Notes: generated by a model from the letters alone, not told the origin. DNA of 32,000 bases from Opitutales bacterium (GCA_965219535.1 CBDCNV010000002.1:510001-542000), one strand, 5' to 3'; counted from the first letter of the stretch, positions 9,129 to 27,400 are shown. Numbers and translations: made by a program.

Positions 9129-9150
9129 CACGAATGAACACGAATAGACG
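9129..9150. repeat. Left terminal inverted repeat of GxxExxY cassette 1 (two tandem 10-nt units, cacgaatgaa / cacgaataga)
   Basis: cacgaatagac (9139-9149) is the exact reverse complement of gtctattcgtg (9591-9601). Over the full 20 nt, 17/20 positions are complementary to 9582-9601. Confidence 0.75.
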
Positions 9151-9154
9151 CTAA

Positions 9155-9586: not shown

Positions 9587-9602
9587 TCGTGTCTATTCGT
9601 GG
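9581..9602. repeat. Right terminal inverted repeat of GxxExxY cassette 1
   Basis: gtccattcgtgtctattcgtgg is the reverse complement of two cacgaatNNa units. The cassette gene's ATG (9584-9586) lies inside the repeat. Confidence 0.75.
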
Positions 9603-9628
9603 TTGATTTCCAGGTGTGGATACTTTTC

Positions 9629-10135
9629 TCACATTTCGAATTCTTCTTTTGCGCGGTCAAGGCATTCTTCGGTCACTTGGGTGAAACCCTTTTCGTGCGC
9701 GAATTTTTCTATGCCTTTTTTTGCCATGGGGCGGGCAAATTCGGGAATATTCTGTAAACGGACCATCGCCTGAGCCGTCCAGGGAAACTCGTCTTCATTC
9801 TTATTCGCGGAGTCGGTCTCTGAAGCTTCCATCATAGAATCGCGGGCCATTTGAGAAAAAGGACACTTAGCCGCGGGCTCCGAACTCGCATCGGTCATGT
9901 TCCCGCTTTCATCAAGGGTTATGCCCTGGGATTTCGATACTGTTTCTCCGCCGATTTCTACTCCCATCGAAGTGACCATCTGTGTTTCAAAGGCATTGGT
10001 CAGCATCGCGATCTCCATCAGGCAGTCCGGACATTCATAGCGAATGGATAGAGACCCATGATCATCAGGTTTTAGGGGAGCTTCATTTTTTACCAGTTTC
10101 ATCTGGGTGTTACAGGATGTGCATAAGAATTTCAT
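9629..10135 (-). CDS. Small Zn-ribbon protein with a C-terminal PCP_red-like module
   Basis: CTSC ... CPDC pair at the N-terminus. The C-terminus is FPWTAQAMVRLQNIPEFARPMAKKGIEKFAHEKGFTQVTEECL. The start codon lies 1 nt after the stop of the upstream Mrp-like gene. Confidence 0.65.
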   Translation of the reverse strand: MKFLCTSCNTQMKLVKNEAPLKPDDHGSLSIRYECPDCLMEIAMLTNAFETQMVTSMGVEIGGETVSKSQGITLDESGNMTDASSEPAAKCPFSQMARDSMMEASETDSANKNEDEFPWTAQAMVRLQNIPEFARPMAKKGIEKFAHEKGFTQVTEECLDRAKEEFEM

Positions 10136-10136
10136 G

Positions 10137-11018
10137 TTAAGCTTCCAGGGTATTCATTATTTTTGTTGCGATCTTTTGAAGAGAAATGTTGGTGGGAGAA
10201 CTGCTGGCACTGGCGGTAATCGTTCCTCGATCACATTGTTCAGCCACCGCGGGATCAAATGGGACTGAGCCCAGCAAAGGGATATCCAATTTGGCGTTAC
10301 CCGAAGGAAACAAGGGTTTTACTTCTTTGGAGTCGGCACAGTAATAGCCGCTCATGTTTTCGATATACCCGATAATGGGAGATGGAGTTTTCTTAATGGC
10401 CGCGATTGAACGCGCGACAACACCTTGCGAAACTTCAGAGGGGATGGTGATAAGTATGAACGACGTTTTGCTGCCAAAAAATTCTGCGAATTGAAAACAC
10501 CGTTCGGCACCGGGGGGAAGATCGATAAGGAGAAAATCTAATTGTCCCCAATCGGTATCAGCGAGGAAATCGGCGAGGGTTGAAAACTCTTTAGTCGCTC
10601 GCCATACATGGGAATCACCACTGGCCACACTTTTAAAATCTACCGCTTCCGATTCCGGCACCAAGGTACCAAAGGAGATGACGCCAATGCCAGATTTTGT
10701 TTTCGGGACGATAAGTCCATTCTGCCCGGGTATGAGCGGAACGTCAGTGAGACCGGCAAGACGTGCCAGGGCTGGACCGTTAACATCTGCATCGAAAAGG
10801 GAAACGCGTTTTCCTAAACGGTTAAATGCTGATGCAAGATACATTGAGATCGTGCTCTTACCCACTCCTCCTTTACCTGATCCAACTGCAATGACATATT
10901 TGATCCCGGATAGGTTTGCTTCAATTTTGGCTTTGTGCGCGACGACTTGTCCCATAATATTGGAACCGCCATCTCCAGCAAGGTCGGAGTAGGTTTTTAG
11001 TTCTTTCGAATCGTCCAT
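10137..11018 (-). CDS. Mrp/NBP35/ApbC-like SIMIBI P-loop ATPase, divergent (no CxxC cluster-binding motif)
   Basis: Deviant Walker A GSGKGGVGKST. DADVNGP and WGQLDFLLIDLPPG are present. IENMSGYYCADS occupies the position where canonical members have ENMS..(C..C). Confidence 0.8.
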   Translation of the reverse strand: MDDSKELKTYSDLAGDGGSNIMGQVVAHKAKIEANLSGIKYVIAVGSGKGGVGKSTISMYLASAFNRLGKRVSLFDADVNGPALARLAGLTDVPLIPGQNGLIVPKTKSGIGVISFGTLVPESEAVDFKSVASGDSHVWRATKEFSTLADFLADTDWGQLDFLLIDLPPGAERCFQFAEFFGSKTSFILITIPSEVSQGVVARSIAAIKKTPSPIIGYIENMSGYYCADSKEVKPLFPSGNAKLDIPLLGSVPFDPAVAEQCDRGTITASASSSPTNISLQKIATKIMNTLEA

Positions 11019-12024: not shown

Positions 12025-12900
12025 TTAATTAGTGTGATGTAATTGCGCGAGTTCCTGAAGAATTTCATCGGGGGTCCACTCGTTTCCACGAAGCACTTTA
12101 ACCAATTTTCCGGAAGCATCAGCGATAACAGTTCGCAATGAATGGGCGATTTCTTCAGGGGAACTTTCATTTTGCACGACTGTTATTCCAAAATGCTCTG
12201 CAAAATTTACGATCCTTTTTCTTTCACCGGTAAAAAAACTCCATACCTCATAATCTGCATTGAGTGCATCACCATGTCGTTTAAGAACTTCTGGAGTATC
12301 ATAATCCGGATCAAAGCTTATCGAGATGAGCCTGGTTGTTGATTTTAAATCTTTGCTCTCGAGGAATGTTTTTTGCAGCGATTGAAAGTGAATATCCATA
12401 AGAGGACAAAAATTGGGCAGTGGGCAACGCGTATAGATAAAGGTCAGGATCAAATGCTTCCCTCGATACGCTTTAAAATGCTGCACGCTATTATCCTGGT
12501 CGATAAAAGCAGTATCCGGTAGAAGATCGCCTTTACGGAGTTGGGTGATACCATTTAGCGAGTTCTGTAAGGATTCATTGTTTATCAGCTCTTCAAACCC
12601 GATTTTTACAATAGCGGTGAGATAGGCTTCATTATCGGTCACTATAAGTTTCGCTTCGATAAAATCCCCCGGCATTCTCCCTTCAAGCAGGGTGACATCC
12701 TTTACTTTAAAAGGCATGGTCATTGCGGGCATAAAACCAGGTATTTCCTCATGTTTTAATGTGATTTCATTCTTCACTGAATAAATGGATATTACCTGTC
12801 CACGCAGATCGTAGATGACTTCTCTTGGAGCCGGGCGGCAGGATAGACAAAGGGTGATGAGAATAAAAATCGCAGGAAAGCTATGAAGCTTGGACATCAT
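12025..12900 (-). CDS. SCO1/SenC-family copper chaperone fused to an N-terminal CusF-like Cu(I)-binding domain
   Basis: N-terminal signal or lipoprotein-like peptide. ITLKHEEIPGFMPAMTMPFKV is a CusF-type Met/His motif. It is followed by a thioredoxin-fold SCO block, LILTFIYTRCPLPNFCPLM ... ISFDP..DTPEVL ... AHSLRTVIADASGKLV. Confidence 0.8.
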   Translation of the reverse strand: MMSKLHSFPAIFILITLCLSCRPAPREVIYDLRGQVISIYSVKNEITLKHEEIPGFMPAMTMPFKVKDVTLLEGRMPGDFIEAKLIVTDNEAYLTAIVKIGFEELINNESLQNSLNGITQLRKGDLLPDTAFIDQDNSVQHFKAYRGKHLILTFIYTRCPLPNFCPLMDIHFQSLQKTFLESKDLKSTTRLISISFDPDYDTPEVLKRHGDALNADYEVWSFFTGERKRIVNFAEHFGITVVQNESSPEEIAHSLRTVIADASGKLVKVLRGNEWTPDEILQELAQLHHTN

Positions 12901-12916
12901 TATGAATAAATCTTAA

Positions 12917-12983
12917 GGTGGAGCGGGCTGTCCCAGCACGCTTTGATTAAAATTATAAACGCGCTGGGACAGCCCGTTCCACC
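12917..12983 (-). terminator. Long hairpin (21-bp stem, 1 mismatch, about 25-nt loop) downstream of the ABC operon; putative terminator or palindromic repeat element
   Basis: ggtggagcgggctgtcccagc (12917-12937) pairs with gctgggacagcccgttccacc (12963-12983). It lies 85 nt after the stop of the last ABC gene and 17 nt upstream of the SCO1 start. The trailing sequence is only weakly U-rich. Confidence 0.35.
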
Positions 12984-13067
12984 CTATAAAATCATAAATT
13001 GTTTTAAAAAAGGAGAATTCCGGGTGCATGAATCCCCTTAAGGAAAATCCAAATTAGTTTCGAACGA

Positions 13068-13934
13068 TCAATTTTCGGTCGGTTCGCTTATTGGAGTAAA
13101 TACCAGTTTTACATCGGGATCGGGGTGCGGAATTGCAGAAAGGAGCATGCGGGTGTAGGCGTGCTGCGGGTTTTCAAATATCGTTTCCGTCTCTTCTATC
13201 TCCACGATTTTTCCCTGATGCATCACGGCAACTCGGTCGCTAATGTGTCGAACCACACTTAGGTCATGAGCGACAAATATATAAGTTAAATTTAATTCCT
13301 CCTGAAGGTCTTCAAGCAAATTAATAACCTGGGCTTGCACCGAGACGTCGAGCGCGGAAACGGCTTCATCACATACGACAAGAGACGGGCTCATTATAAG
13401 TGCGCGTGCGATGCCGATACGTTGTCGCTGGCCACCACTGAAAGCATGGGGATATCTTTGCCGGTGCTCCGGTTTCATTCCCACTTTGACCAGCATGTCA
13501 TCGACGCGGTCGATCAATTCCTTCCCCTTTGCCAGTTTGTGGATGTACAATGGCTCACCCACAATATCTCCAACCGTCATCCGGGGGTTGAGGGAAGAAA
13601 ATGGGTCCTGGAAAATCATTTGCATTTGCGTGCGCAATGGCTTGAGCTCCCTCTCCGTTAGTTTGACCAAGTCGATTGCTTTCCCATTGGTTCTGAATAT
13701 CACTTCACCGTTAGTGGGTTTGAGGGCGCGCAAAATCGTTCGCGCGCAGGTTGTTTTTCCTGAACCGCTCTCTCCGACCAATCCCAGGGTTTCCCCTGGA
13801 AATATATTGAAACTTACATTGTCGACAGCCTTGACGACATCGATCTGCTTTCTGCCAAACCCCTGACTGTATATAGGAAAGTGCTTGCTGAAATTTTTAA
13901 CCTTTAGGAGAGGTTCTACTCCATGATCATTCAT
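13068..13934 (-). CDS. Opp/Dpp-type ABC transporter ATP-binding protein (OppF/DppF-like)
   Basis: Walker A GESGSGKT, signature FSGGQRQR, Walker B LVVCDEAVSALD, H-loop FVAHDL. The start overlaps the upstream gene by 4 nt (ATGA). Confidence 0.9.
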   Translation of the reverse strand: MNDHGVEPLLKVKNFSKHFPIYSQGFGRKQIDVVKAVDNVSFNIFPGETLGLVGESGSGKTTCARTILRALKPTNGEVIFRTNGKAIDLVKLTERELKPLRTQMQMIFQDPFSSLNPRMTVGDIVGEPLYIHKLAKGKELIDRVDDMLVKVGMKPEHRQRYPHAFSGGQRQRIGIARALIMSPSLVVCDEAVSALDVSVQAQVINLLEDLQEELNLTYIFVAHDLSVVRHISDRVAVMHQGKIVEIEETETIFENPQHAYTRMLLSAIPHPDPDVKLVFTPISEPTEN

Positions 13935-14962
13935 ACCTTTATCGCTCCTTTAAATTTTCTTGCCCCGCAGCAGGATACCTGTCGACCGTTAGGTAACATC
14001 TCCATAATAGGATTATCTCCCACGTCACAGACGCCAGGTATCGAATCGGGACAGCGTGGATGAAAGGGGCAGCCGGCGGGTAGATGGGTGAGGGAGGGGA
14101 CATTTCCTATAATAGAAGGCAGACGAGCTTGTTTTGTTTCATTTCTCGGCAATGACTTTAGCAGTCCAACCGTATAGGGGTGAAGAGGATCTTTTAAGAC
14201 CTCTCGCACCGTGGCCTGTTCAACCAGTCTCCCCAAATACATAACAGCGACGTCATCAGCGATCTGTGCGACGACTCCCAAGTCATGAGTAATAAATATT
14301 ACCGAAGTCCCGAGATCTCGCTGTAAGCTTTTAATCAAGTCAAGAATCTGAGCCTGGATCGTGACATCAAGCGCGGTGGTCGGTTCATCGGCGATGAGCA
14401 CTTCCGGCTGGCAAACCAGAGCCATTGCGATGACCACGCGTTGACGCATGCCTCCACTAAATTCGTGAGGATATTGTTGAAGTCGACGTTCGGGTTCAGG
14501 GATGCCTACCTTGCCGATCATTTCGATCGCCAGTTTTTCGGCTTCCTTAACAGTGACATTCTGATGCAAAAGGATAGCTTCACAGATTTGATTTCCGATC
14601 GTGTGCACCGGGCTTAGTGCGGTCATTGGTTCCTGGAATATCATACTGATGAGCCCGCCCCGTACCTGGTAAAGCATATCCGATTTTTCGGTTAATGCCG
14701 TAATATCGATTGGGCTTTTATTTTTCGGATAGAGAGTGATCTTACCCCCCGCGATTTGACCGGGTTTCTGAATCAAGCGGAGAATGGAAAAGGCGGTTAC
14801 ACTTTTTCCACACGCACTTTCCCCTACGATGGCAAGAACCTTACCGCGCTCTAATGAAAATGTTACTCCATCCACCGCCGAGAGCACACCCTCCTCAGTA
14901 GTGAAGGTCACCTTGAGGTCATTGACACTTAGAACAATATCTTTTTTTTCGTCTTCGGCCAT
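13931..14962 (-). CDS. Opp/Dpp-type ABC transporter ATP-binding protein (OppD/DppD-like) with a Cys-rich C-terminal extension
   Basis: Walker A GESACGKS, signature FSGGMRQR, Walker [13 protein letters not shown]-loop FITHDL. The C-terminus is PYT..LL.S.P ... CPFHPRCP...C...CC. Confidence 0.9.
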
Positions 14963-14963
14963 T

Positions 14964-16142
14964 TTATCGGGTTACATGAGAAGAATAGGGATCGGCTGCA
15001 TCGCGTAAGCCATCACCCATAAAGTTATAGGCGAGGACAGTTAAAATAATAGATATCACAGGCATGAGAAGCCAAGGGTAATTAGCGACAACTTGCAGAT
15101 TCATGCATTCCTGGAGCATGACGCCCCAACTTACAATGGGCGGTCGCAACCCCAACCCCAGAAAACTCAATGCGGTCTCACCCAGGATCATGCCCGGTAC
15201 GCTCAAGGTAAGGGTGACAATAATATGACTGGTAAATCCGGGCAAGAGATGGCGGAAAATAATTCGCCCATGGCTGGCCCCTATGAGATACGCTGCGACC
15301 GCGTAATCCTCTTCGCGCAGCGAGAGAATTCTCCCGCGAACGACTCGGGCGAGCCCCGTCCAGGAGAGGAGGCTGAGGACAATAGTAATGGCAAAATATA
15401 CCCTTAAAGCCGGCCAGTCACTTGGCATAATAGCGGCGAGGGCGAGCCATAACGGTAACTGTGGGAAGGCGTTTACAATCTCAATCGTTCGCTGAATCAA
15501 ATTATCGACTCGACCGCTGAGATATCCGGAAATACCACCGATTGTAACACCTAAAATAAATGTGATGACAATGGCAACGATCCCAATGGATAGGCTGATC
15601 CGGGAACCGTAAATGATACGGCTGAAAATATCGTGACCAAATTTATCGGCACCGAGAAAATAGAAAGTTGGCAGCGGTGTTTCCTCCTCGCTATCTGGTG
15701 GTACGTAAGCGTTGTGATCAACACCCAAAAAACGGCGCTCCATCGGGATCAGCCCCCAGAGCTTGTAAGGTTCGCCTTTAGCGAAAAAACTCAGGGGTAT
15801 GAAATCTTCCTTTTGTTCGATATAATATTTTTTAAAAGTGATAGGATCGATATTGCGATGCATGGCATTGACGTTGATACCATGACTGAAATTAATCTTT
15901 GGGAGTTGTGGTGGACAATAAGCGTGATCGAGGTCACGCCAATCTCGGCCATAAGGTGCGAAAAATTCCGCAAAGATGGCCATGAGGTAGAGAACAATTA
16001 AAACATAAAGTGAGGCGACCGCCAAACGATGTTTGGAAAAGCGTAAACGGATAAGCTGCCACTGGGAGAGAGTCGCGGTGCTCAGTTCAATCAACTCTTC
16101 ATCACCATTTAACGGGGGAGAAGGTGTTGGTTTCTCTGCCAT
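14964..16142 (-). CDS. Opp/Dpp-type ABC transporter permease (OppC/DppC-like)
   Basis: Six hydrophobic segments. EAA-type loop EEDYAVAAYLIGASHGRIIFRHLLPG. C-terminal GDGLRDAADP. It is 1 nt from the downstream gene and 2 nt from the upstream gene. Confidence 0.9.
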   Translation of the reverse strand: MAEKPTPSPPLNGDEELIELSTATLSQWQLIRLRFSKHRLAVASLYVLIVLYLMAIFAEFFAPYGRDWRDLDHAYCPPQLPKINFSHGINVNAMHRNIDPITFKKYYIEQKEDFIPLSFFAKGEPYKLWGLIPMERRFLGVDHNAYVPPDSEEETPLPTFYFLGADKFGHDIFSRIIYGSRISLSIGIVAIVITFILGVTIGGISGYLSGRVDNLIQRTIEIVNAFPQLPLWLALAAIMPSDWPALRVYFAITIVLSLLSWTGLARVVRGRILSLREEDYAVAAYLIGASHGRIIFRHLLPGFTSHIIVTLTLSVPGMILGETALSFLGLGLRPPIVSWGVMLQECMNLQVVANYPWLLMPVISIILTVLAYNFMGDGLRDAADPYSSHVTR

Positions 16143-16144
16143 AA

Positions 16145-19100
16145 TTAGCGGCTACCTCCTTCCATGCGTATTCGAGGATCCAACCAGAGAAGCAACAGAT
16201 CACTGACCAGTGTTCCCAACACACCGAGTAGACTTAAGATCATGAGCATCGATCCGGCCAAATACATATCTTCCTTCATCAAGGCATCCAGCATTAACGG
16301 CCCAACCGTAGGTAGGCTGAGGACCATCGCGACGATCGCGCCCCCAGAGACTAGTGACGGGAAAATTCCCCCAATTCCCGAGATAAATGGATTAAGCGCT
16401 AAACGCACAGGATATTTCATTAAGAGCTTAAACGGTCGCACCCCTTTGGCCATAGCAGTAATGACATAGGGTTTTTTCAACTCGTCAAGCAAGTTGGCGC
16501 GCATCACCCGAATCATGCTAGCTGTTCCCGAGACTCCCAAAACAACTACAGGCACCCAGACATGCTGTAAAAGGTCAATTATTTTACCCCGCGTCCACTC
16601 TGGTTGGACTGAATATTCGGGTGAAAAAAGGCCGGAAATGTTAATACCTAGATATTTACCACTCCAATAAAGCAGGATTAAGGCGAGTAAGAAGCTGGGA
16701 ACACTCATTCCGATAAAGCCGATTAAGGTAAATAAATAATCGCTTAAGGTGTATTGACGAACCGCAGAAAAAATACCGATAGGGAGGGCTACCGCCCAGG
16801 TAAATAAAATCGTGCCCAGTGAGATAAGGAAAGTAAGAAGAACGCGATCACCCACCACTTCATTGACCGTGTTCTGGCTCTCCATCGACAATCCCATATG
16901 GCCCTGCAGTAAGCCCTGGTCTTTATTTTCAAAAGAGGTAAACCAGTTAAGGCCTAGCCAGCGGGTATAGCGTTCGGCGACGGGTTTATCGAGATGAAAA
17001 ATCTCGCGCAGCTCATTAGCCTCATCAATGGAACTTGTGCCACCTTTTAGCTGTAGTTCTAATATCTTGGTCTCGATATAATTTCCTGGTGGTAACTGGA
17101 TGATAATAAATGAAATCACCGAGATGATGAGCAGGGTGGGAATCATAAAGAGTAGCCGCCTGCCGATGTAGGGATGCCGCAACCCGATCATTATCATTCC
17201 GCATGTGAAAATGCCAATAATCATGTACTTTATAAGTCTTGCCAATCGGATCTCACTGTTCACTTCACGGTTGAAGGAAGCTTGGCTGTAAGGAGCAGGG
17301 GTGACTTCAATCATTTCCTTTTTGATCTGCGCAATCGAGCCAGGAGAATCATAAGGTTTATCAAAATAAAAGGTTTCCATTCCCGCATTGGGAGGCGGAC
17401 TATAGAGTGCGCCATAAAATGCGTTGCGTGGAACATTCTTAAACCCGTTTTTGACTATGACGAGATGTTGCGGAGGTGTTGCAATATTGATCGTCCAGAG
17501 ATTCTCCGCCGCAATATCGAATACCTCATTGAATATTTTACGTTGGTCACCGCGTTCGGTTTTGCCGTACGCTTCATCAATGAGTTTCATCGATAACCGT
17601 ATGGGATGATCTATCGGCGGTGCGATGCCGCCAAATTGAGTGGCTTCAGGATTATCGTAATGCCCCCCTCTTAAATACCAGTTGTAGTAGCCGTAAGCCT
17701 GTTGTTGTGATAAGGCCATAAAATTTTCAGGGCGCACGATAGGATTGAATTCACACTGCGCGGAATAAACAGTAAATTCCAGTTTTCGTGAATTTATTTC
17801 AACTGTATATAGCGAGATCGTTGGTCTACGACGGATGGCGAGAATACCCACACGGCGCCAGTCTTCAATGATGAGCTCAGTCGGCCCCTCGTCTTCCATC
17901 TCCGGCAGGGTATAACGCCAGGCCATGCGTGTCCCGTCTTTAAACGTACGGTAACCTTCGCCATCACGCCGCGTAAGACCAATCTCATCGAGCATTCGAT
18001 TTGCGCGCTCGGGGTCATACTCGGTAAAACTTTTATGTAGCTTTTCATGGTGGAAAAACGAATCCCTGCCGGGTGATAACTGTGCCGGCTCTCCCATACT
18101 GTTATAAACCGTTTCGATAATTTGCTGGCGATTGATGGCGAGTGAAAGAGCCTGACGGAAGCGTTTATCATTTAGGAGATCATGCTTCATTTGGGTAACC
18201 GGATCTTCGGGATCGATTAAAAGATTGAGATTTGGATAAATAAGATAGCGCGAACGGGTCGCGGGAAACCAATGATAAACTTCATAATCTCCATTAACAC
18301 GTTCTGACATGAGCAAGGTGTATTGAAGGTCCATGACAAATGTTTGGAGGGTAATAGCCCCGCTAGCTGCTGCTATTTGTAAAAGCTGCTGATTTTTTAT
18401 TTCAAAGTGCAATTGGTTTACATAGGGGAGCTGATTGCCCTCAGGGTCGACAGCCCAGAAGTAGGGATTCCGCACAAATACCTGGGGTGGATTGGCTTTA
18501 TAGGTACGGTAAATCCAGGGCCAAAGTCGCGGGTGTTCAGGATTGTTCCATTTTTGTAACGCCATATAGAGGCTTTTTCGTGAGGGGAGTCTTCTTTCCT
18601 CGAGGGTAGTAGTGATTAGCGCATCGTCACCCAGTTCCGGGTGATATTTTTCAAGATAATGTCGAGGCGAACAAAATGCCCAGGCTCGAGCTAACTTTTC
18701 GAGAAACGTTCCATGGGGCTGAGAAAATAGAAACTTTACGGTGTGATCATCGATTTTAATAATCTCCCCTTGTTTCCCTCCCATGTTCATCCAGTCCGGT
18801 GGCACATTCTCGAATAAATCATATTTAACCACATCGTTCCACCAGTAGAGGATATCGTCAGCAGTAAAAGGGTGACCGTCAGACCATTTCATCCCTCGGC
18901 GTAAGTAAAATGTCCATTCCTTCTTATCGGAACTGGATTGCCAACCCTTGGCGATGTAAGGCACGATCGGGTAACCGAGCGGAGACCAGCGAACCAGTGT
19001 GGAACCAGTCAAAAAATTCCGTAAGAAATCTAATTCCGTCTGAGAAGCATACACCCTGAACCAGGTGCCCCCGTATTTGCCAATTCCATCCACCCCATTG

Positions 19101-19444
19101 AGCACCACCGGTTCAGGACCCACGCGCTCTGCCACGGGTAGCAGTTTATCCTCTTTCACCAGTTCGCCAAGAATGGGAGACTCATTTTTGGGGTACCACG
19201 GGGCGGATTCTCCCTCCCCATAGTCGACGTCCTGTTGTATCTTGAAAAGATCATCCTCGGTAAAACTGACGTCCCTTAATTTTTTCGTATAGTCAATTAC
19301 CTCCTCACTATAGAAAATGGGTTCCTCCTCCAATTCCGGTTTTAATATATCACCCCAAAAATAAAGGAATCCAAATACGAGACAGCCGGTAAGAACAGTG
19401 AACAACAGGAAGTTGAAACTTTTTTTCATGTCCTTATTTTTCAA
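16145..19444 (-). CDS. Fusion protein: N-terminal TM anchor + family-5 substrate-binding domain + linker TM + OppB/DppB-type permease
   Basis: aa 10-30 are hydrophobic. An SBP_bac_5-like core runs from about aa 110 to 690 (LVRWSPLGYPIVPYIAKGWQSSSDKKEWTFYLRRGMKWSDGHPFTADDILYWW). A TM helix follows at about aa 727-741. A complete OppB-like module begins at YIGRRLLFMIPTLLIISVISFIIIQLPPGN, with the EAA loop YVITAMAKGVRPFKLLMKYPVRLALNP and a LDPRIR end. Confidence 0.85.
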   Translation of the reverse strand: MKNKDMKKSFNFLLFTVLTGCLVFGFLYFWGDILKPELEEEPIFYSEEVIDYTKKLRDVSFTEDDLFKIQQDVDYGEGESAPWYPKNESPILGELVKEDKLLPVAERVGPEPVVLNGVDGIGKYGGTWFRVYASQTELDFLRNFLTGSTLVRWSPLGYPIVPYIAKGWQSSSDKKEWTFYLRRGMKWSDGHPFTADDILYWWNDVVKYDLFENVPPDWMNMGGKQGEIIKIDDHTVKFLFSQPHGTFLEKLARAWAFCSPRHYLEKYHPELGDDALITTTLEERRLPSRKSLYMALQKWNNPEHPRLWPWIYRTYKANPPQVFVRNPYFWAVDPEGNQLPYVNQLHFEIKNQQLLQIAAASGAITLQTFVMDLQYTLLMSERVNGDYEVYHWFPATRSRYLIYPNLNLLIDPEDPVTQMKHDLLNDKRFRQALSLAINRQQIIETVYNSMGEPAQLSPGRDSFFHHEKLHKSFTEYDPERANRMLDEIGLTRRDGEGYRTFKDGTRMAWRYTLPEMEDEGPTELIIEDWRRVGILAIRRRPTISLYTVEINSRKLEFTVYSAQCEFNPIVRPENFMALSQQQAYGYYNWYLRGGHYDNPEATQFGGIAPPIDHPIRLSMKLIDEAYGKTERGDQRKIFNEVFDIAAENLWTINIATPPQHLVIVKNGFKNVPRNAFYGALYSPPPNAGMETFYFDKPYDSPGSIAQIKKEMIEVTPAPYSQASFNREVNSEIRLARLIKYMIIGIFTCGMIMIGLRHPYIGRRLLFMIPTLLIISVISFIIIQLPPGNYIETKILELQLKGGTSSIDEANELREIFHLDKPVAERYTRWLGLNWFTSFENKDQGLLQGHMGLSMESQNTVNEVVGDRVLLTFLISLGTILFTWAVALPIGIFSAVRQYTLSDYLFTLIGFIGMSVPSFLLALILLYWSGKYLGINISGLFSPEYSVQPEWTRGKIIDLLQHVWVPVVVLGVSGTASMIRVMRANLLDELKKPYVITAMAKGVRPFKLLMKYPVRLALNPFISGIGGIFPSLVSGGAIVAMVLSLPTVGPLMLDALMKEDMYLAGSMLMILSLLGVLGTLVSDLLLLWLDPRIRMEGGSR

Positions 19445-19469
19445 CCATGAATTAACTTACTGCTACCGC

Positions 19470-22400
19470 TCATCTGCGACCGCGCTCCATACGAATACGG
19501 GGGTCGAGTATCATCAATAAAAGATCACTGACAAGTGTGCCAAATACGCCGAGCAGGCTCAGCACCATAAGCATCGAACCTGCAAGATACATATCTTCAC
19601 TCATGAGCGCGTCCAGCATCAACGGACCCACCGTGGGAAGGCTCAATACCATGGCGACGATCGCGCCACCGGATACGAGTTGAGGAAATAAAACTCCGAT
19701 CCCGGAGATAAAAGGATTTAGCGCGATACGCACCGGGTACTTTATTAGCAGTTTGAATGGGCGTACGCCTTTGGCCATCGCGGTAGTTACATAAGGTTTA
19801 TTCAGTTCATCAAGGAGGTTACCGCGCATCACTCGAATCATGCTCGCGGTGCCGGTTAATCCCAGAACAATCACCGGCACCCAGATGTGTTTCATAAGAT
19901 CGGTTACCTTGCCTGCTGACCACTCTGGCTGACCTGCGTATTCCGGTGAAAAGAGACCCGTCATACTGATACCAAAGTAAAGGTTACCCCAGTACATAAA
20001 GAGAAGAGCGAGAAGAAAACTCGGTACACACATTCCGATAAAACCAAGGAGCGTAAATATATAGTCACCGATAGAGTACTGGCGCACCGCGGAATAAATG
20101 CCTATCGGTAAAGCCATTGACCAGGTTAAAAGAATCGATCCCAGGGTGATAAGAAGCGTGAGAAGGATGCGATCTCCGACGACCTCGTTGACAGGCCTTC
20201 GGCTCTCCATCGAGTAACCGAGATGTCCCTGGAGTAGGCCTTCATCCTCGGAATTAAACGAACCGAACCAGAATAGACCGAGCCATTGCAAATATTCCTC
20301 AATACCAGTTTGATCGAGCGGATAGAGTTTAAGGAGTTGCTCCGCTTCGATGATTGCCTGCTGATCGCCATCCATTTCTGCTTGTAATATTTTTGCCTCT
20401 ATAAAATTGCTAGGTGGAAGCTGGATAATAATGAAAGTAATAACCGAGATAATAAAAAGCGTGGGCACCATGATAAGCAAGCGGCGCCCGATATAGGGAT
20501 GCCTCACCCCTGAAAGTAGCAGCCCTAAAAGAGCAATACCGATGCAGAGATTACGCACTAGTCGATTCAGGGTTTTTCCCTTATCTGTCTCTAAAGTTAC
20601 CGTATCTACAATCTGAGGCATTGGGTTGATATCAGTAATTTCTTTTTTTATCTGAGCAGTCGTTCCTGGCGAATCTCGCTTACTCATAAAGTAAAAAGTT
20701 TCCAAACCACCATTGGAGGGAGATAAAAATTGTTGGCCGTATATTGCTTTGCGCGGTACGTTTTTCAGGTCTTTGTCGACGATTACAGGAGAAGGAGCCA
20801 TTGTCGCAATACTGATCGACCAGACATTCTCTGCCGCGATGTCCTGAATTTCATTATATATTTTTATTTGCTCCTCTATATTGGGGGCTAAATAAGCAGC
20901 TTCGAGCAATTCCATGCAATGCCTCAATGGGTGATCCATCGGGGGTTCAAGATTGCCGAATTTCAGTGACAATGGATTGCCATAGAGTCCGCCGTCGCGG
21001 TACCAATTATCAAACCCTCTGGCAATGCTTTGACCAACACTACCCGGCACATATTGGCGTGGTGCTGACAACGGATAGGTAACCGCAACCCCCCAGACAC
21101 CAAAATCCGTGACCCGTCCTCTACCTTCAGCGGCATAGAATAACATCGAGCGCTCTTTTGCGATCGCACGGATACCGACATTTTTCCAGTCTTCAATAAC
21201 AAAAGGGCTGGGTCCACCGCTAAAGTTGGGAATGAAACTGAGGATCCACACCATGCGTGTGCCATCTTTAAAGGTGCGATAACCTTCGCGGTCGCGCTGA
21301 GTCAGACCGATCGCGTCGAGCAGTTGACTGGCACGGTCGGGCGCGTAGTCAATAAAACTTTTAAACAGTTTTTTATTATGAAAAGGAGATATTTTTCCGG
21401 GCGTAGCTTGCCCCGGTTCACCCACGCCGTAGTAAACCGCATCAATAATTTGCTGACGGTTAATCGCCAGAGAGAGCGCTTGCCGAAATCGTTTATCATT
21501 GAGCAATTCCCATTTCATGAAAGAGACCGGATCGTCGGGATCAACGCGTCGATTTATATTGGGGAAGATAGACCAGGGGGAGCGGGCATGAGGATACCAG
21601 TGGTAAACTTCGTAATTGTTAGCTTCACGCTGGGACATAAACAAAGTGTAATATTTAAAATAAATGTGTCGGCCTTGCATCGAAAGACCACCGCTGGCTG
21701 CGGTTATCGGGACAAGTTTCACGGTTTTAACATCAATCATCACGCGATCGATATAGGGGAGCTGATTGCCTTTAGGATCGACAGCCCAGTAATAGGGGTT
21801 GCGGACAAAAAAGTGGGGTGGATTTGCTTTGTAAGTGTGATATACCCAGGGCCAGATACGCGGACACTCGGGATTAATATGATCTTTCATTTTGAGATAA
21901 AGCCCTTGTCGCGTTGGAATATTCATTGCTTTCATCGTGGACTCGATAAGGGCGTCATCACCCAGCCCGGGGTGGTACTTTTCTAAATAATGCTTTGGCG
22001 AGTAGTACTCGAAGGCTGACGACATGCGTTCCAGCAATAGCGAGTGAGGTACGGGAAAAACAAATTTTACAGTATGAGAATCGACTTGAATAATATCACC
22101 GACTTGCCCCGCGATTTTCATCCAATCGAGATGAGTATGTTCGATAAACTCACTCTCACCCTCCCACCAGTAAAGGATATCTTCAGCGGTAAAAGGGTGA
22201 CCGTCGGACCACTTCATCCCTTTGCGCAAATAAAAAGTCCATTCCTTTTTATCCGGTGAAATCTTCCAGCCTTTAGCGACGTGAGGAACTATGGGATATC
22301 CTAATGGCGACCAGCGGACGAGGGCAGCGCCAGACATCACATGTCTTATTACATTGACTTCATTCGGGCTGTTTGAAACGTAGTTCCAGGTTCCCCCGTA

Positions 22401-22754
22401 TTGACCAATGCCGTCCACTCCTTCAATAACTACCGGCTCCGGCCCCACCCGTTCCTCTACCGGTGGTAATTTTCCTTCCTCAACCAGTTCCGTGAAGATC
22501 GGTGATTCGCTTTTTGGATACCAGTGTGCGGATTCACCCTCTGAGTAGTTGACCTCTTTCTGAACGGCGTATTCATCCTCGGGGCTAAAAGTAATATCCC
22601 GTAATTTTTCAGTTTCCTCGATTAATATCTGACTATATTGGATAGGTGCTATTGGAAGTTCCGGCTTCAATACTCCACTCCAATAATAGAGAAAACAGAA
22701 TAATCCGGCACCTGTAAGGAAGAGAAAGACCAGGGGCTTGAATACCTTTTTCAC
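19470..22754 (-). CDS. Paralogous fusion protein: TM anchor + family-5 substrate-binding domain + linker TM + OppB/DppB-type permease
   Basis: Same architecture and colinear similarity to 16145-19444 along the whole length. The permease part is nearly identical in long runs (GGAIVAMVLSLPTVGPLMLDAL), while the SBP core is more diverged. It lies 25 nt upstream of its paralog. Confidence 0.85.
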   Translation of the reverse strand: MKKVFKPLVFLFLTGAGLFCFLYYWSGVLKPELPIAPIQYSQILIEETEKLRDITFSPEDEYAVQKEVNYSEGESAHWYPKSESPIFTELVEEGKLPPVEERVGPEPVVIEGVDGIGQYGGTWNYVSNSPNEVNVIRHVMSGAALVRWSPLGYPIVPHVAKGWKISPDKKEWTFYLRKGMKWSDGHPFTAEDILYWWEGESEFIEHTHLDWMKIAGQVGDIIQVDSHTVKFVFPVPHSLLLERMSSAFEYYSPKHYLEKYHPGLGDDALIESTMKAMNIPTRQGLYLKMKDHINPECPRIWPWVYHTYKANPPHFFVRNPYYWAVDPKGNQLPYIDRVMIDVKTVKLVPITAASGGLSMQGRHIYFKYYTLFMSQREANNYEVYHWYPHARSPWSIFPNINRRVDPDDPVSFMKWELLNDKRFRQALSLAINRQQIIDAVYYGVGEPGQATPGKISPFHNKKLFKSFIDYAPDRASQLLDAIGLTQRDREGYRTFKDGTRMVWILSFIPNFSGGPSPFVIEDWKNVGIRAIAKERSMLFYAAEGRGRVTDFGVWGVAVTYPLSAPRQYVPGSVGQSIARGFDNWYRDGGLYGNPLSLKFGNLEPPMDHPLRHCMELLEAAYLAPNIEEQIKIYNEIQDIAAENVWSISIATMAPSPVIVDKDLKNVPRKAIYGQQFLSPSNGGLETFYFMSKRDSPGTTAQIKKEITDINPMPQIVDTVTLETDKGKTLNRLVRNLCIGIALLGLLLSGVRHPYIGRRLLIMVPTLFIISVITFIIIQLPPSNFIEAKILQAEMDGDQQAIIEAEQLLKLYPLDQTGIEEYLQWLGLFWFGSFNSEDEGLLQGHLGYSMESRRPVNEVVGDRILLTLLITLGSILLTWSMALPIGIYSAVRQYSIGDYIFTLLGFIGMCVPSFLLALLFMYWGNLYFGISMTGLFSPEYAGQPEWSAGKVTDLMKHIWVPVIVLGLTGTASMIRVMRGNLLDELNKPYVTTAMAKGVRPFKLLIKYPVRIALNPFISGIGVLFPQLVSGGAIVAMVLSLPTVGPLMLDALMSEDMYLAGSMLMVLSLLGVFGTLVSDLLLMILDPRIRMERGRR

Positions 22755-22839
22755 CTTGAGAAAGGTATCACGAATTTTCCCAGAGTGTAAACGTGTTTAA
22801 AAAAATTAGCCGCTTTTGGCCCATGAAAATGCGCTTACT

Positions 22840-23472
22840 TTACCTCTTAGAATACCGTAGGAGCGCAGCTTCATAATCATTGGGTGTATCGATATCAATA
22901 ACTAGCCCGGGATCATCGCAAGGAAGGACTGATATATCTTCTTTAAAATAATTCAAGACCTCTCTTAAATTATTGTGACTATCGTGGGACACTTTCTCAG
23001 CTATATGACGAGGTATTATAACCGGATGTCTTCGCCTGTTTTCGAAAATCGGTTGACAGATATTCTTCGGGTTTTGCTTCGCGTGAGCTATTAAATTGGC
23101 AATCGTTTTTTCACGGATCAGCGGCTGATCACCGAGCGCGACTGCGAGGTGAGATACCTCGTGTTGCCAACCGTCCCAATGGAAGCCGCAAAGGACGGAA
23201 CTAAACATCTCCGGCGTTACCTGGGGGTTGAAAATACGACTTTTCTCTGGCCATGCCAGTCGGTCGAGTTCTGAGATTATATTTGTGTCCCCATGACTAC
23301 ATACAACCGCGACTTGAGACGTGTTGACATTTTTATACAGGTGCAGGAGGTGGCCTAAAATGGAAGTGTCACCCCATGGCAGTAGCAACTTGGGTTTTCC
23401 CATACGGAGTGAAGCACCTCCTCCAAGAATAATCACACCCAGGTGAAAGCTGTTCGGTGGTTTAGTCGTCAC
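22840..23472 (-). CDS. MobA/MocA-like nucleotidyltransferase (molybdenum cofactor cytidylyl/guanylyltransferase family)
   Basis: The N-terminal GVIILGGGASLRMGKPKLLLPWG motif is typical of NTP_transf_3 (MobA-like). GDQP and a C-terminal IDIDTPNDY are present. It has a GTG start. Confidence 0.7.
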   Translation of the reverse strand: MTTKPPNSFHLGVIILGGGASLRMGKPKLLLPWGDTSILGHLLHLYKNVNTSQVAVVCSHGDTNIISELDRLAWPEKSRIFNPQVTPEMFSSVLCGFHWDGWQHEVSHLAVALGDQPLIREKTIANLIAHAKQNPKNICQPIFENRRRHPVIIPRHIAEKVSHDSHNNLREVLNYFKEDISVLPCDDPGLVIDIDTPNDYEAALLRYSKR

Positions 23473-23535
23473 GTCCAGGCCGATCCATACTGAAAATTAA
23501 TCTCCGCTGGCAAAAGTTGAGAGCGGTTAACCTGG

Positions 23536-24378
23536 TCAACTGGATTCTACTTCAAAAGGCAGTTTTTTCAAACGCATATGCTCACCAGAAGCTTTGCGCT
23601 GAACTTTAATAACTTCACCTATTACACTGACGGCAATTTCTGCCGGAGAATCGGCGCAAATATCCAAGCCTATTGGGGCGTAAATTCTTTCCAGGTCCAC
23701 GGGATTGGAACCTTCAGCAACCAATTCTTCGAATACACGAAGCACTTTGCGATTACTGCCAATCATCCCAATATACCCGATAACATGTTGCGGTAATAAC
23801 ACGCGCAAAGCTTCTTTATCGATCATATAATTTCGGCTGACAATAACGACAGAATCCGAGGGTTGCCATGTTTCTTTTTCAAATACTTCCTGTGCCGATA
23901 CATCACTAATTCGTTTTTCGACGTGAGAATAATATTGGTCACTCAATAATTCAGCGCGATCATCGATAACTGTGACATGAAAGCCACAGTCATGGGCTAA
24001 ACTCGCGATTGCTTGAGAGCAATGGCCGGCACCGACAAGGATGAGTCGGGAGGCGAGCTTTTGCGGTTCAATTAACACTGTTACTTCGCCGCCGCATATG
24101 GCACCGAATGAATCCGGTTCATCCTCACGAAGCGGATATCTTTTTAAGAGAGGTTCACCGTTCGAATTGATAGCTTTAATCGACTCTTCAATAACCAATG
24201 ATTCGAATTTACCTCCACCTATAGTGCCGGATATTCTTCCATCACTATAGACGATCATTTTAGATCCCGGTTCGCGTGGCACGGAGCCCTTAATAGAGGC
24301 TACTGTAACTAAGGCACAATTTTCCCTGTTTTTACGGGCTTGAAGGAATTCTTCAATGATCGACTCGGTCATACCCAA
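23536..24378 (-). CDS. XdhC/CoxI-family molybdoenzyme maturation (sulfurated-Moco insertion) protein
   Basis: The N-terminal XdhC_CoxI block is ALVTVASIKGSVPREPGSKMIV...GTIGGG. The C-terminal Rossmann-like block is LILVGAGHCSQAIASLA...G..VTVIDDR, then AEIAVSVIGEVI. The track start is a TTG; the ATG at 24372 (MTESII...) is the more likely start. Confidence 0.8.
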   Translation of the reverse strand: MGMTESIIEEFLQARKNRENCALVTVASIKGSVPREPGSKMIVYSDGRISGTIGGGKFESLVIEESIKAINSNGEPLLKRYPLREDEPDSFGAICGGEVTVLIEPQKLASRLILVGAGHCSQAIASLAHDCGFHVTVIDDRAELLSDQYYSHVEKRISDVSAQEVFEKETWQPSDSVVIVSRNYMIDKEALRVLLPQHVIGYIGMIGSNRKVLRVFEELVAEGSNPVDLERIYAPIGLDICADSPAEIAVSVIGEVIKVQRKASGEHMRLKKLPFEVESS

Positions 24379-24463: not shown

Positions 24464-27400
24464 CTAATTCCGCGACTGCGATTTACGGATCAGTTTAAGC
24501 AGACGACGGCGTTCGCGCCAGCCGATCAGGGTCAGGATTAAACCTGCTCCCAGGTAAGTGGAGGGCTCGGGAACCGGTACGATTTCGTTCCCCTCAAAGC
24601 GCGCTCCCAAGGTCAGGCCCGAACCCCATGGATTGACAAAGCGTATCGCGGCTAACTGTGAATTGGTTAACCCCTGCGCTGCAAAAATAATCTGGTCAAT
24701 ACCTCCTCCATTGGTGTCCCCCGTGTAGTCGAGTATTGAGAGGATCTGCCCCGAGGTCGTCCAAGCTACTTCCAGTCCACTACTGTCGGCAAATTCTAGG
24801 ATGCTGGCTCCAGTGCGCACATCGATTGAAGAGTCCGAAGAGAGGGTCAATGTCCCGAGCACATCATCATTGCCATCCGTGTCAAAGATGCCTCCATCCA
24901 AGTCCATGTTCGCGGTGTTGACGATCTGGTTGTCGCCACTTAACAAAAGACTTCCGCTGTTAATGACGATATTGGCGGTTCCGTCGAGGGCATTGCCCGA
25001 TCCGTTATTCAATTCTAATATGCCCGCGTCAATCGTTGTATCTCCGGTAAAGGTGTTAGTTCCAGTCAGGGTGAGGGTCCCGGTGCCCGCTTTGACGATA
25101 TCACCGGTCTCGGAGATCACCCCGGCAAAGGTCGTGCTCGTGGCATCCCCGACGGTCAGTGTTCCGGCACCTAAGAATACTTCAGAAGTGGCGCTGCCGC
25201 TGGTCAGTGATCCGATCGTTTCGGTGAAACTGTTTACGTCGAGGCGTCCGGTCGAGTTGATCGTTACCGCGGAGGTATCGGTGATTTGTTCGTTGCTTCC
25301 GACAAAGGCGATCGCGCTGTTATTGATGATCAAGTCACCTGGGACTGAGGTGCCTCCAGATACATTCATGTTCAAGATGCCAGCGTTTACTGTTGTGCTG
25401 CCGGTGTAAGTGCTGCTGCCCCCGGTGCCCGCTCCCATAAACCAGGTGCTTGTTCCTTCTTTAATAAAATTACCCATCCCGCTGATCGCTCCTCCATTGA
25501 TAATTCCCGCGAGGGCGGCGGTGTCCACGGTGAGGGTGGATCCGTTGAGGTCGATATCACCGGAGATACGCATCGTCGATCCTGATGAGTTCGCGATTGT
25601 GGCATTCGATCCCAGGGTGATGTCCCCGGTCCATTCTTCCAAGCCGCTGTTGGTCCAGAAAAGCGATCCCACTCCCCCTGCGCCAGTGCCATTAACCGTC
25701 AGTGGCTCAGCAGCCATATCGGCGCTGATACTGGAAATTTCAAGGGTTGCTCCGGACTGCACCACCGTCCCGCTGCCCGTGCCACCCAGTGCGTTGGCAT
25801 CTGTAACTTCAAGGGAGCCCGCTTGTACCGTCGTTAAACCCGTGTAGGTGTTGACTCCATCTAATATCAACGTCCCGGTCCCGGTCTTATCGAAGGTACC
25901 GCTTCCCGCCATGATCCCTCCATAGGTCAGCGTCGTTGCGGCGTCGGTTTCGATCGTGCCCCCGCCAGCGTTTAATGCGATCCCCCGGTTGCTGTCTAAA
26001 GTAAAGGTAGCGGTTGTATTAAGCGTGCCGCCGTCAAAGGTGAGATGTCCGGGAGTTGCTGCACCGGGGGCTGCTCCCAGGTTGCTGTCTGCGCTGATGC
26101 TTAGGGTACCATCATTGATCGTAGTCGATCCGCTGTAGGTGTTGACACCCGATAAAGTCAGCGTACCCGTTCCGTCTTTAGTTAAATCTCCGGTCCCCGC
26201 CATGACTCCCCCGTAGGTCAGGGTCGTCCCAAAATCGGTATCAAAAGTGCCGCCGCCGGCTTGGAGATCGATTCCCCGGTTGCTGTCTAAAGTGAAGGTA
26301 GCACTGTTGTTGAGCGTACCGCCGTCAAAAATCAAGTGTCCGGGTGTCGCTGCTCCCGGGGCCGTGCCCAGACCGCTGTCTGCGCTGATGCTCAATGATC
26401 CATCATTAATTGTCGTCGTTCCCGTGAAAGTGTTAACACCTGACAAGGTCAGTGTTCCGGTTCCTTCTTTGACTAGGTCACCGGTCTCAGAGATGATTCC
26501 GGCAAAAGTAGTACTCGTGGCGTCACCGACCGTTAATGTCCCGGTGCCTAAGAATACTTGTGCGGTTGTCGTAGCACCCGTTAACGAACCGATCGTTTCG
26601 TTGTTATCATTAAGGTCGAGTCTACCCGTCGAGTTAATCGTCACCGCAGAGGTATCGACAATGTGGTTAGCTGTACCAAGTATCACTCGATCGGCTCCCG
26701 TTGCCCCAACGCCGTCGCCAATAAATAGATCACCCGTTATTTTGGTCGTTCCTGCTGCGCCCCCCAGCCTTATTCTTCCGGTGTTCACCGTGGCGTCACC
26801 GACGTAATCATTGACTCCGCCAGCATCAAATCTGAATGTGCCGGTCCCTTCCTTAATAAAGTTTCCCGTGCCGGTTAAAATCGCGCCGCCGTTCATGCGT
26901 GCTGTGACATCGTTATCCATCGTGAGATCATTTCCGTTCAGGTCTATGTCTCCGGAAAATCGCATATTACCCGCATCGACGACAATAAGTGAATCGGAGC
27001 CCAACGTGATAGCGCCCGTCCATTGTTCTGTTCCTGTGCCGTCAGTCCAATGCAGGGCGCCATTGACTCCACCCACTCCTGTGCCGTTGATCGTGAGTGT
27101 TTCGGCTGCCATGTTACCGGTAATGTTAGATACCTCTAAAGTCCCCCCAGACTGAACGACTGTACCGGTACCGGTTCCTCCTAGTGCATCGTTGTTTTGG
27201 ATGTCCAGTGTTCCGGACTGTACCGTGGTGGTGCCCGTGTAGGTGTTCGTTCCGCTTAGGGTCAGGGTTCCGCTTCCCGTTTTATCCATGTCACCGGCGC
27301 CAGCAATTTCACCACCGTAAGTCAATGTCGTCGCAGCGTCGGTGTCGATAGTACCATCACCTGCATTTAGAGCAATCCCGCGATTGCTGTCTAAAGTAAA

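Follow-up and report, generated by a model that had tools for sequence, protein, structure and literature searches.

Substrate-binding domains (SBDs) fused to ATP-binding cassette (ABC) importers have been studied almost only in the OpuA and GlnPQ families, with small cluster-F domains and homodimeric translocators. In the DppABCDF importer of E. coli, the scoop motif of DppB, located between transmembrane (TM) helix TM1 and the next helices, enters the cleft of DppA and pairs with ligand-binding residues, and both DppD and DppF carry [4Fe-4S] sites (PMC12136057). SPH1118 of Sphingomonas sp. A1 is a binding protein for galacturonate/pectin oligosaccharides that gives no response to peptide mixtures (PMC9314435). 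In this study, we describe a locus of an Opitutales bacterium (GCA_965219535.1 CBDCNV010000002.1:510001-542000) that brings elements of these systems together. The whole stretch of 32,000 nucleotides (nt) is referred to as the window, and coordinates are counted from its first letter. At 13068-22754 on the minus strand, five closely spaced open reading frames (ORFs) follow each other in the order fusion 2 (F2), fusion 1 (F1), OppC, OppD and OppF, and in both fusions a large family-5 binding domain is joined to an OppB-type permease in a single polypeptide.

We consider it fairly probable that the locus encodes a type I importer of the PepT family (Opp/Dpp/Nik), in which the substrate-binding protein (SBP) has been fused to OppB, and in which F1 and F2 would serve as alternative modules on an OppCDF core that is shared with orphan fusions encoded elsewhere and used for the import of oligosaccharides.

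Architecture and conservation of the fusions

F2 (19470-22754, minus strand, as all features of the operon) is a single ORF of 1094 amino acids (aa) with a GTG start that encodes an N-terminal TM segment, a family-5 binding domain, a tether, a linker TM helix and an OppB permease. F1 (16145-19429) has the same four-part architecture and also comprises 1094 aa when read from the ATG at 19429. An alternative TTG start at 19444 would yield 1099 aa (16145-19444); the ATG is most likely the correct start, because the gene calls of public assemblies use it and all close homologues begin with MKK. Pfam recognizes SBP_bac_5 (PF00496; E-values of 1e-46 and 2e-51) and both BPD_transp_1_N and BPD_transp_1 (approximately 2e-24 to 4e-25) in each fusion, so that the domain check proposed by the first-pass annotation returned the two expected families. 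In F2, PF00496 covers residues 155-510 and PF00528 residues 881-1088.

According to their hydropathy, the fusions start with a TM segment at residues ~4-29, continue with about 700 hydrophilic residues and a second TM segment at ~730-750, and end with the six OppB helices. The F2 parts are an N-terminal hydrophobic helix predicted as a signal anchor (residues ~4-26; 22677-22745; Kyte-Doolittle peak 2.04), a cluster C/SBP_bac_5 binding-domain core (residues ~82-690; 20685-22511) that can be aligned over its whole length to the free SBPs 5ipw and SPH1118, a linker TM helix (residues ~729-750; 20505-20570; peak 2.02) followed by the conserved cytoplasmic turn RHPYIGRR, and an OppB-type permease core (residues 754-1094; 19473-20495) with six TM helices, a scoop motif and an EAA loop. 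The corresponding parts of F1 are an N-terminal helix marked by a Kyte-Doolittle peak (residues ~5-29; 19343-19417) that contains a lipobox-like LTGC, a binding-domain core with phmmer and Foldseek matches to cluster-C SBPs (residues ~82-691; 17357-19186), a linker TM helix (residues ~730-750; 17180-17242; peak 2.03) preceded by the tether at 715-730, and a permease core (residues 754-1094; 16148-17170) with its scoop at ~780-812 (nt 16994-17092). F1 was modelled with AlphaFold2 on the basis of 76 family members (mean predicted local distance difference test score, pLDDT, of 81.9; predicted TM-score, pTM, of 0.78), and the model has a helix at 2-29, a binding domain mostly above pLDDT 90, a tether (715-730) below 50, a helix at 724-749, a three-residue turn and a next helix at 753-778, from which the permease continues. 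Pfam, NCBIfam, hydropathy and the structural model thus agree on the four parts that had been read from the sequence in the first pass.

The position of the fusion point is well defined. Residue 4 of free OppB proteins aligns to residue 759 of F1 (in YIGRR), and the NCBIfam profiles Opp4B, Opp2B and OppB cover the permease part from profile position 4 to the end, with the OppB profiles corresponding to residues 754-1088 of both fusions; the matches of this part in the PDB include DppB (8z1v) and OppB (8z21). The fusion point therefore coincides with the canonical cytoplasmic N-terminus of OppB and a complete OppB has been joined, which means that the extra linker helix returns the chain to the cytoplasm. 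The N-terminal and linker helices are hydrophobic in 74 of the 76 family members, and the RHPYIGRR turn is strongly conserved. We propose that the N-terminus of the fusion would be located in the cytoplasm with the first TM helix carrying the chain out, that the binding domain of approximately 610 aa would fold in the periplasm, and that a flexible tether of about 15-30 aa and the second TM helix would bring the chain back, where the conserved turn leads into the six-helix OppB.

The family is large and widespread. A search among 5.8 billion proteins gave 5942 matches, and nearly all of the best 120, which were inspected for length and domains, are 1030-1127 aa long and contain both domains. 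In a genome scan with one genome per species, 418 relatives were confirmed; the top 80, examined as loci (L numbers below), span nearly the whole query and originate from Opitutales, Puniceicoccaceae and Chthoniobacter (Verrucomicrobiota), Kiritimatiellia, Lentisphaerae/Victivallales, several classes of Planctomycetota, Armatimonadota, Hydrogenedentota and one spirochaete. When a query spanning the junction was searched exhaustively, only about 40 strong clusters at 50% identity were obtained, some 20 of them full length with a single alignment across the junction, and this low number indicates one single, fairly tight family. The tandem locus itself recurs at L001, L019 (OY829953.1; proteins 89-99% identical), L005 and L083, and it was recovered in at least five independent assemblies. 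The ratio of non-synonymous to synonymous substitution rates (dN/dS, ω) between orthologues amounts to 0.145 for F1 and 0.116 for F2 (versus the L019 orthologue), with 0.07-0.14 for three orphan pairs, and purifying selection acts on the binding-domain and permease parts alike. The fusion is real and conserved.

Some copies deviate from the intact form. Split copies with one ORF for the binding domain and one for the permease occur at L005 (11390-15995), L011 (4468-7743) and L030 (8170-11256), and may correspond to frameshift errors, pseudogenes or true fission. At L003 (7664-9792), compared to L004 (6529-9792), a transposase of the IS1595 family is located at the place where the sister genome has the binding-domain part of a fusion, and a permease-only gene of 388 aa is left, an example of module decay by insertion of a mobile element.

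The architecture is uncharacterised. Full-text literature searches did not find a description of a family-5 SBP-permease fusion, in agreement with the initial impression that such fusions are undescribed for these systems, while the proteins are abundant in databases under generic names. Their source annotations read 'ABC transporter permease subunit', 'substrate-binding protein' or a dual IMG component name. The strings 'SBD-TMD' in an inventory of C. difficile ABC transporters were considered as a prior report and rejected, as they denote gene order.

The first helix is plausibly a retained membrane anchor, which would hold the binding domain at both ends. This is favoured because the hydrophobic run extends over about 25 aa and no cleavage motif is found. 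In many Opitutales members (F1 and homologues P0001-P0020) the N-terminal helix contains, halfway along, a lipobox-like L/F-T/A-G/S-C motif, which F2 and distant members lack. Alternatively, the N-terminal segment could be removed as a signal peptide or act as a lipoprotein signal, leaving the binding domain attached by the linker helix alone, plus a lipid anchor in the case of a lipoprotein. The N-terminus indeed has the layout of a signal sequence, with positive residues preceding hydrophobic ones, L-T-G-C or similar is found within this segment of many Opitutales members, and GlnP-type fusions carry a cleaved signal peptide. We nevertheless regard a single tether as unlikely, since the hydrophobic run of ~25 aa lacks an Ala-X-Ala-type site and continues for 13 more hydrophobic residues past the cysteine, the cysteine itself is missing in F2 and in distant members, and the F1 model gives one unbroken helix (residues 2-29) with pLDDT values of 84-93.

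Binding cleft, scoop and substrate class

F1 and F2 share 59% identity overall, with a very uneven distribution. The binding domains are 54% identical, falling to 26-36% at residues 500-575, the tethers 37% and the linker helices 33%, compared to 73% for the OppB core and 80-94% for its last 150 aa. The first-pass annotation had judged by eye that the permease halves are much more conserved than the central parts of the binding domains, and these values bear this out. When the ligand-contact residues of SPH1118 (PMC9314435) are projected onto the family, 14 positions are alignable for F1 and F2, and the two proteins differ at 13 of these. Among 46 operon-linked orthologues from many phyla, four cleft positions are near-invariant (R, R, W, R; entropy of 0.15-0.6 bits). 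Three of these four correspond to Arg294, Arg466 and Arg496 of SPH1118, and all three arginines are kept in the single-copy ancestral type. Among 12 paralogues of OY829953.1 the same four positions reach 1.8-2.9 bits, although the binding domain as a whole is less diverse there (0.98 versus 1.41 bits). F2 retains R362, W554 and R566 of the signature, and of the three SPH1118 arginines it keeps R294 and R496; F1 has F, I, Y and E at the four positions and keeps none. The SPH1118 contacts Arg57, Arg438 and Trp594 are not conserved in the fusions. This pattern fits a difference in ligand specificity between F1 and F2.

A similar diversification is observed in the scoop, which appears as two short helices in the F1 model. 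No other part of the OppB core is less conserved: F1 and F2 are 39% identical in the scoop, and identity across the 12 paralogues is 57%, versus 76-90% for the TM helices. Its loop reads LKGGTSS in F1, MDGDQQA in F2 and TGDEAA in the single-copy type. If the scoop of a B subunit has to match its own binding domain, this would explain why SBD and OppB are fused and are duplicated together, with C, D and F remaining generic.

With regard to the substrate, the closest solved relatives of the binding domain are 5ipw, SPH1118 and MelB/AgpA. The F1 domain matches 5ipw with an E-value of 1e-86 and SPH1118 with 8e-67 in phmmer, and shares the cluster C fold of approximately 600 aa with an extra domain that is seen in SPH1118. 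The best Foldseek fit is GalUA-bound SPH1118 (7veu; target TM-score 0.91, root mean square deviation 2.3 Å), followed by binders of alpha-galactosides and chito-oligosaccharides, ahead of peptide and nickel binders. MelB/AgpA binds alpha-galactosides; 5ipw is an 'OppA' of T. maritima for which no ligand is shown. The genes around single-copy operons encode AXE1, GH130, GH2, GH52, GH127, NamZ and regulators of the LacI/AraC types. In a Pfam census of 103 ORFs that neighbour orphan fusions, PhyH dioxygenases (14 ORFs) and sulfatases (6 ORFs) are enriched, and one orphan lies amid a GH78 rhamnosidase, a sulfatase, a SASA esterase, three PhyH genes and an HpcH/HpaI aldolase. Judging from these relatives and neighbourhoods, oligosaccharides rather than peptides are the most probable substrates, with anionic ones for the ancestral type.

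A classical importer of oligopeptides, dipeptides or nickel, with the fusion as a mere anchoring variant and an unchanged substrate class, would be the conventional interpretation. All five proteins match Opp/Dpp/Nik profiles, source annotations name the homologues as components of dipeptide, oligopeptide or nickel transport, and Peptidase_S9 matches are found near three single-copy operons. We rate this possibility as quite unlikely. All NCBIfam equivalog scores lie far under their cut-offs (e.g., 184 versus 450 bits for Opp4B and 40 versus 947 bits for OppA), so that none of the equivalog assignments (OppB, DppB, NikB, GsiC, etc.), which would imply peptide, nickel or glutathione, applies. 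Moreover, the nearest structures with known ligands bind sugars, SPH1118 lacks peptide binding, peptide binders rank lower by sequence and by fold, the neighbours are mostly carbohydrate-active enzymes and sulfatases, and the Peptidase_S9 matches may represent the same esterase-fold proteins as the AXE1 matches. The label 'peptide/nickel' used in the first pass thus holds only as a family name; the closest characterised binding proteins and the neighbourhoods point to carbohydrates.

PhyH Fe(II)/2-oxoglutarate dioxygenases are the commonest neighbours of orphan fusions (L004, L011, L017, L082 and others), often together with sulfatases and HpcH/HpaI aldolases. The window also contains two PhyH genes (29185-29970 and 30039-31013, plus strand) and one HpcH aldolase (3889-4659). 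A census by BLAST with the PhyH proteins of the window recovered only 8 ORFs, the family being too diverse, and the Pfam census was used in its place.

Working unit and a shared OppC-OppD-OppF core

Downstream of the fusions, the operon encodes an OppC-type permease (14964-16142; 392 aa), presumed to be the common partner of F1 and F2, an OppD-type ATPase (13931-14962; 343 aa) and an OppF-type ATPase (13068-13934; 288 aa). F2 and F1 are separated by 25 nt, or by 40 nt if F1 starts at the ATG, F1 and OppC by 2 nt and OppC and OppD by 1 nt, and OppD and OppF overlap by 4 nt. The gene order was thereby confirmed as initially read, and so was the lack of a separate binding protein: no free family-5 binding-protein gene was found in the window, scanned for all ORFs of at least 150 aa and two shorter ones of 113 and 102 aa. 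F1 and F2 are probably co-transcribed, given their adjacency and the gap of 25-40 nt; promoter and terminator scans of 12800-23600 gave match counts equal to the shuffle expectation, and transcript boundaries cannot be claimed from them.

OppC contains OppC_N (PF12911) and BPD_transp_1 (PF00528) and matches OppC/DppC chains in the PDB. Compared to E. coli OppC and DppC it has an insertion of about 85 aa in the first periplasmic loop (residues ~71-158; nt 15669-15932), which is kept in 64 homologues and modelled by AlphaFold2 as a small beta-rich domain (strands at 82-141; pLDDT 84-94), in a model that is poor in the C-terminal TM region (pLDDT below 50 at 275-337). This domain may provide a surface on which the tethered binding domain docks. 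When the OppC model was used in a fold search, all chains returned were OppC/DppC, and the beta-rich insertion had no match of its own. Both ATPases consist of ABC_tran and oligo_HPY (PF08352), the latter at profile positions 1-63 of 65 in OppD (NCBIfam OppD, 352 bits) and truncated to 1-33 of 65 in OppF (NCBIfam OppF, 339 bits). Five cysteines can be read at the C-terminus of OppD (...GVCD...SCCG; within 13931-14100), in a pattern resembling the [4Fe-4S] sites of DppD and DppF; OppF lacks such a cluster, and only one ATPase, OppD, would thus carry an Fe-S cluster.

The composition of related operons is informative on the working unit. OppC adjoins the fusion in 48 of 78 fetched fusion loci, and the commonest operon outside Opitutales has one fusion ahead of OppC, OppD and OppF, the two ATPases being joined in some cases as a fused OppDF. 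These single-fusion operons imply that one B-type fusion and one C-type permease form the basic pair, as in all solved Opp/Dpp translocators. Judging from gene content, a single fusion together with OppC, OppD and OppF makes up the ancestral unit, and F1 and F2 would accordingly be alternative B subunits rather than co-residents of one complex. The working complex would then comprise one fusion, OppC, OppD and OppF with a single, cis-acting binding domain, and F1 and F2, with their different clefts and scoops, would compete for the same core. A different solution is seen at L060 (2894-14322), in a metagenome-assembled genome (MAG) of Brocadiaceae, where the order fusion-OppC-fusion-OppC is followed by one fused OppDF ATPase of about 707 aa; here OppC has been duplicated with the fusion and only the ATPase is shared.

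The fusions have multiplied well beyond the tandem locus. OY829953.1 (4.49 Mb), to which the organism of the window is close, encodes at least 12 intact fusions in 10 loci, in addition to one split copy and one that is cut at the end of its locus, and among these fusion loci OppC, OppD and OppF are found within 8 kb only at L019, which is syntenic to the locus in the window. A closed genome of 4.98 Mb (ERZ26694896 ctg118059) has at least six orphans in three loci (three at L004, two at L081 and one at L082), none with OppC within 10 kb; two more fusion clusters, P0038 and P0059, are probably also located on this genome. A search with OppC revealed no paralogue radiation like that of the fusions, as matches fall from 97-99% to a single one at 83% and then to at most 75% in other lineages. 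OppC is also under stronger constraint (dN/dS of 0.035-0.044): between the window and L019 it is 98.7% identical with ω of 0.035, compared to about 89% and 0.12-0.15 for F1 and F2. The simplest reading of this distribution is that the scattered SBD-OppB modules use the OppC-OppD-OppF core encoded here. In Opitutales this locus would act as a hub, and a dozen or more SBD-OppB modules located beside catabolic genes elsewhere would probably use the same core.

Alternatively, the orphan fusions, and possibly F1 or F2, could assemble as OpuA-like homodimers with two binding domains and borrowed ATPases, with neither OppC nor a shared OppC core being needed. This would account for the 30 fetched fusion loci without OppC within 8-10 kb, and homodimeric importers with fused SBDs do occur in other ABC families. 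A B-B homodimer is, however, not known in the PepT family, the C-terminal half of the transmembrane domain (TMD) of the orphans is 80-95% identical to the operon copies, as expected for proteins with the same partners, and ATPases encoded elsewhere would still be needed, so that some sharing is required anyway. We therefore hold this arrangement to be improbable. An unusual stoichiometry, which had been raised as a second option in the first pass, is in our view very unlikely. In such a complex, F1 and F2 would be present together, e.g., as a TMD heterodimer with two different binding domains, with OppC in an accessory role or within some larger assembly; the two genes are indeed adjacent and probably co-transcribed, and OpuA and GlnPQ hold more than one binding domain per complex. 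Against this, the commonest operon across phyla shows that one B-type and one C-type subunit suffice, OppC has been kept beside the fusion in 48 loci as the most constrained component, and all solved PepT-family translocators are B-C heterodimers. The initial suggestion of alternative B-type subunits with different specificities on one OppC/D/F set has, by contrast, been strengthened by the single-fusion operons, the orphan fusions and the diverged clefts. Finally, a pseudogene or an artefact in which a frameshift or mis-assembly joined separate oppA and oppB genes, the refuting outcome that the first pass had named, can practically be dismissed: a few split copies at related loci in long-read MAGs (L005, L011, L030) would speak for it, but the full-length ORF is kept in hundreds of independent assemblies, the same locus recurs in at least five, the linker helix and RHPYIGRR turn are conserved without a counterpart in the separate genes, and both halves are under purifying selection.

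Extending the shared-core explanation, we tentatively suggest a picture that seems quite possible, if somewhat short of probable. A dozen or more interchangeable half-translocators, each with a doubly tethered SBD and an OppB whose scoop is matched to its own cleft, would compete for one constitutive OppC-OppD-OppF core, and specificity would be set by the module that is expressed along with the catabolic genes beside it. Such a system would be the type I equivalent of the module sharing in group II ECF transporters, employed by polysaccharide degraders of the Planctomycetes-Verrucomicrobia-Chlamydiae (PVC) group for (anionic) oligosaccharides.

Several observations weigh against the shared-core explanation or parts of it. 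OppC, OppD and OppF were counted near fusion loci, and further sets elsewhere in the genome would change the sharing ratio, which is not established. The increase in conservation from binding domain to N-terminal TMD to C-terminal TMD is alike in cross-phylum orthologues and in paralogues; the C-terminal TMD conservation of within-genome paralogues (86%), considered as evidence for a shared partner, was dropped since cross-phylum orthologues are alike (80%). The distances of cleft and scoop correlate with a rho of 0.80, a value equal to that of the cleft versus the rest of the TMD (0.80), and do not reveal coevolution beyond shared phylogeny. The F1 cleft lacks any SPH1118-like arginine, so that the cleft does not determine its ligand class, and the immediate neighbours in the window (MobA/XdhC, the PATR protein described below and SCO1/CusF) are uninformative on the substrate. 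The lipobox-like LTGC of the Opitutales subgroup means that the N-terminal helix could be a cleaved signal peptide. In addition, all members in the top 80 loci come from MAGs, and the family is known from sequence alone.

Genomic surroundings and comparison with known systems

Elsewhere in the window, a protein of 1285 aa with eight PATR (passenger-associated transport) repeats is encoded at 24464-28321 (minus strand), upstream of the XdhC/MobA genes. Repeats of this type are named by Pfam for autotransporter passengers, and the GC content of the region is raised to 0.50-0.56 versus about 0.45 elsewhere. At 5614-11018 (minus strand) there are three PCP_red (PF08369) proteins, one as a fusion with a radical SAM/SPASM enzyme, another with two Usp domains and the third alone, and this cluster adjoins an Fe-S P-loop NTPase of the NUBPL/ParA type, an unusual combination. 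Three consecutive genes for multi-haem cytochromes c are located at 590-3869 (plus strand), the last of which matches an ethylbenzene-dehydrogenase-type (EB_dh) domain.

For the annotation of genomes, the family described here implies a relabelling. Proteins named 'peptide/nickel permease' or 'substrate-binding protein' in hundreds of genomes of Verrucomicrobiota, Planctomycetota, Kiritimatiellia and Lentisphaerota are likelier oligosaccharide importers tied to polysaccharide degradation, which affects how carbon uptake is read from MAGs of environmentally important degraders. If one OppCDF core is shared among the modules, specificity could be changed by swapping half of a type I translocator, with the match between scoop and cleft as the genetic rationale.

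The closest systems by descent are the canonical OppABCDF and DppABCDF importers (PepT, TC 3.A.1.5), represented by E. coli DppABCDF (8z1y) and M. tuberculosis OppABCD (8j5q). The locus has the components by which this family is recognized, i.e., a cluster-C family-5 binding protein, OppB-type and OppC-type permeases and two oligo_HPY ATPases, that of OppF being truncated, and it also shares the scoop region between TM1 and TM2 of the B subunit and an OppD cysteine pattern similar to that of the Fe-S sites of DppD and DppF. It differs in that an extra TM helix joins the binding protein to the N-terminus of OppB, that the binding protein has an N-terminal TM helix of its own, that two tandem B-type fusions are present per C-type subunit, that OppC has the periplasmic beta-rich insertion of ~85 aa, that OppF is without the Cys cluster, and that the binding domain belongs to a sugar-binding branch of about 600 aa and not to the peptide binders. 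SPH1118 (7veq-7vew) and 5ipw are likewise large cluster-C SBPs that align end to end with this domain, yet both are free periplasmic proteins.

The fusion principle is common to OpuA (OTCN) and GlnPQ (PAAT), the types to which the first-pass annotation had pointed as known fusions. In these importers as well, binding domain and TMD are combined in one polypeptide, which provides a high local concentration and delivery in cis. Their domains (OpuAC and GlnP SBD1/2) belong, however, to cluster F, and their TMDs are homodimeric with two or four binding domains per complex. Here, a cluster C/SBP_bac_5 domain is carried by one of two different TMDs, the OppB-type one, which from the gene content would give one binding domain per complex; the same gene content speaks against a homodimeric TMD, as the operon and the 48 related loci encode a distinct partner of the OppC type. 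Furthermore, TM helices are located on both sides of the domain, and the fused module has expanded into many paralogues.

Feeding of one energising core by several binding modules has precedents among free SBPs, such as DppA1-A5 with DppBCDF in P. aeruginosa and OppA with MppA in E. coli. In contrast to these, each module considered here contains one translocator half, namely the B-type TMD and its scoop, and the shared part would be OppC with the ATPases instead of the whole BCDF. Group II ECF transporters, with a shared EcfAA'T and scattered S components, provide a functional analogy only: scattered, membrane-embedded specificity modules presumably compete for one energising module in both cases. 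Fold and mechanism are unrelated, as ECF transporters work without a binding protein and by toppling of the S component in the membrane, and for the present system such sharing would be the simplest reading of its gene distribution. Compared to OpuA and GlnPQ, the family thus extends the principle of a fused SBD to the large cluster-C proteins of the Opp/Dpp type and would place it, between two TM helices, on a heterodimeric translocator with one binding domain per complex.

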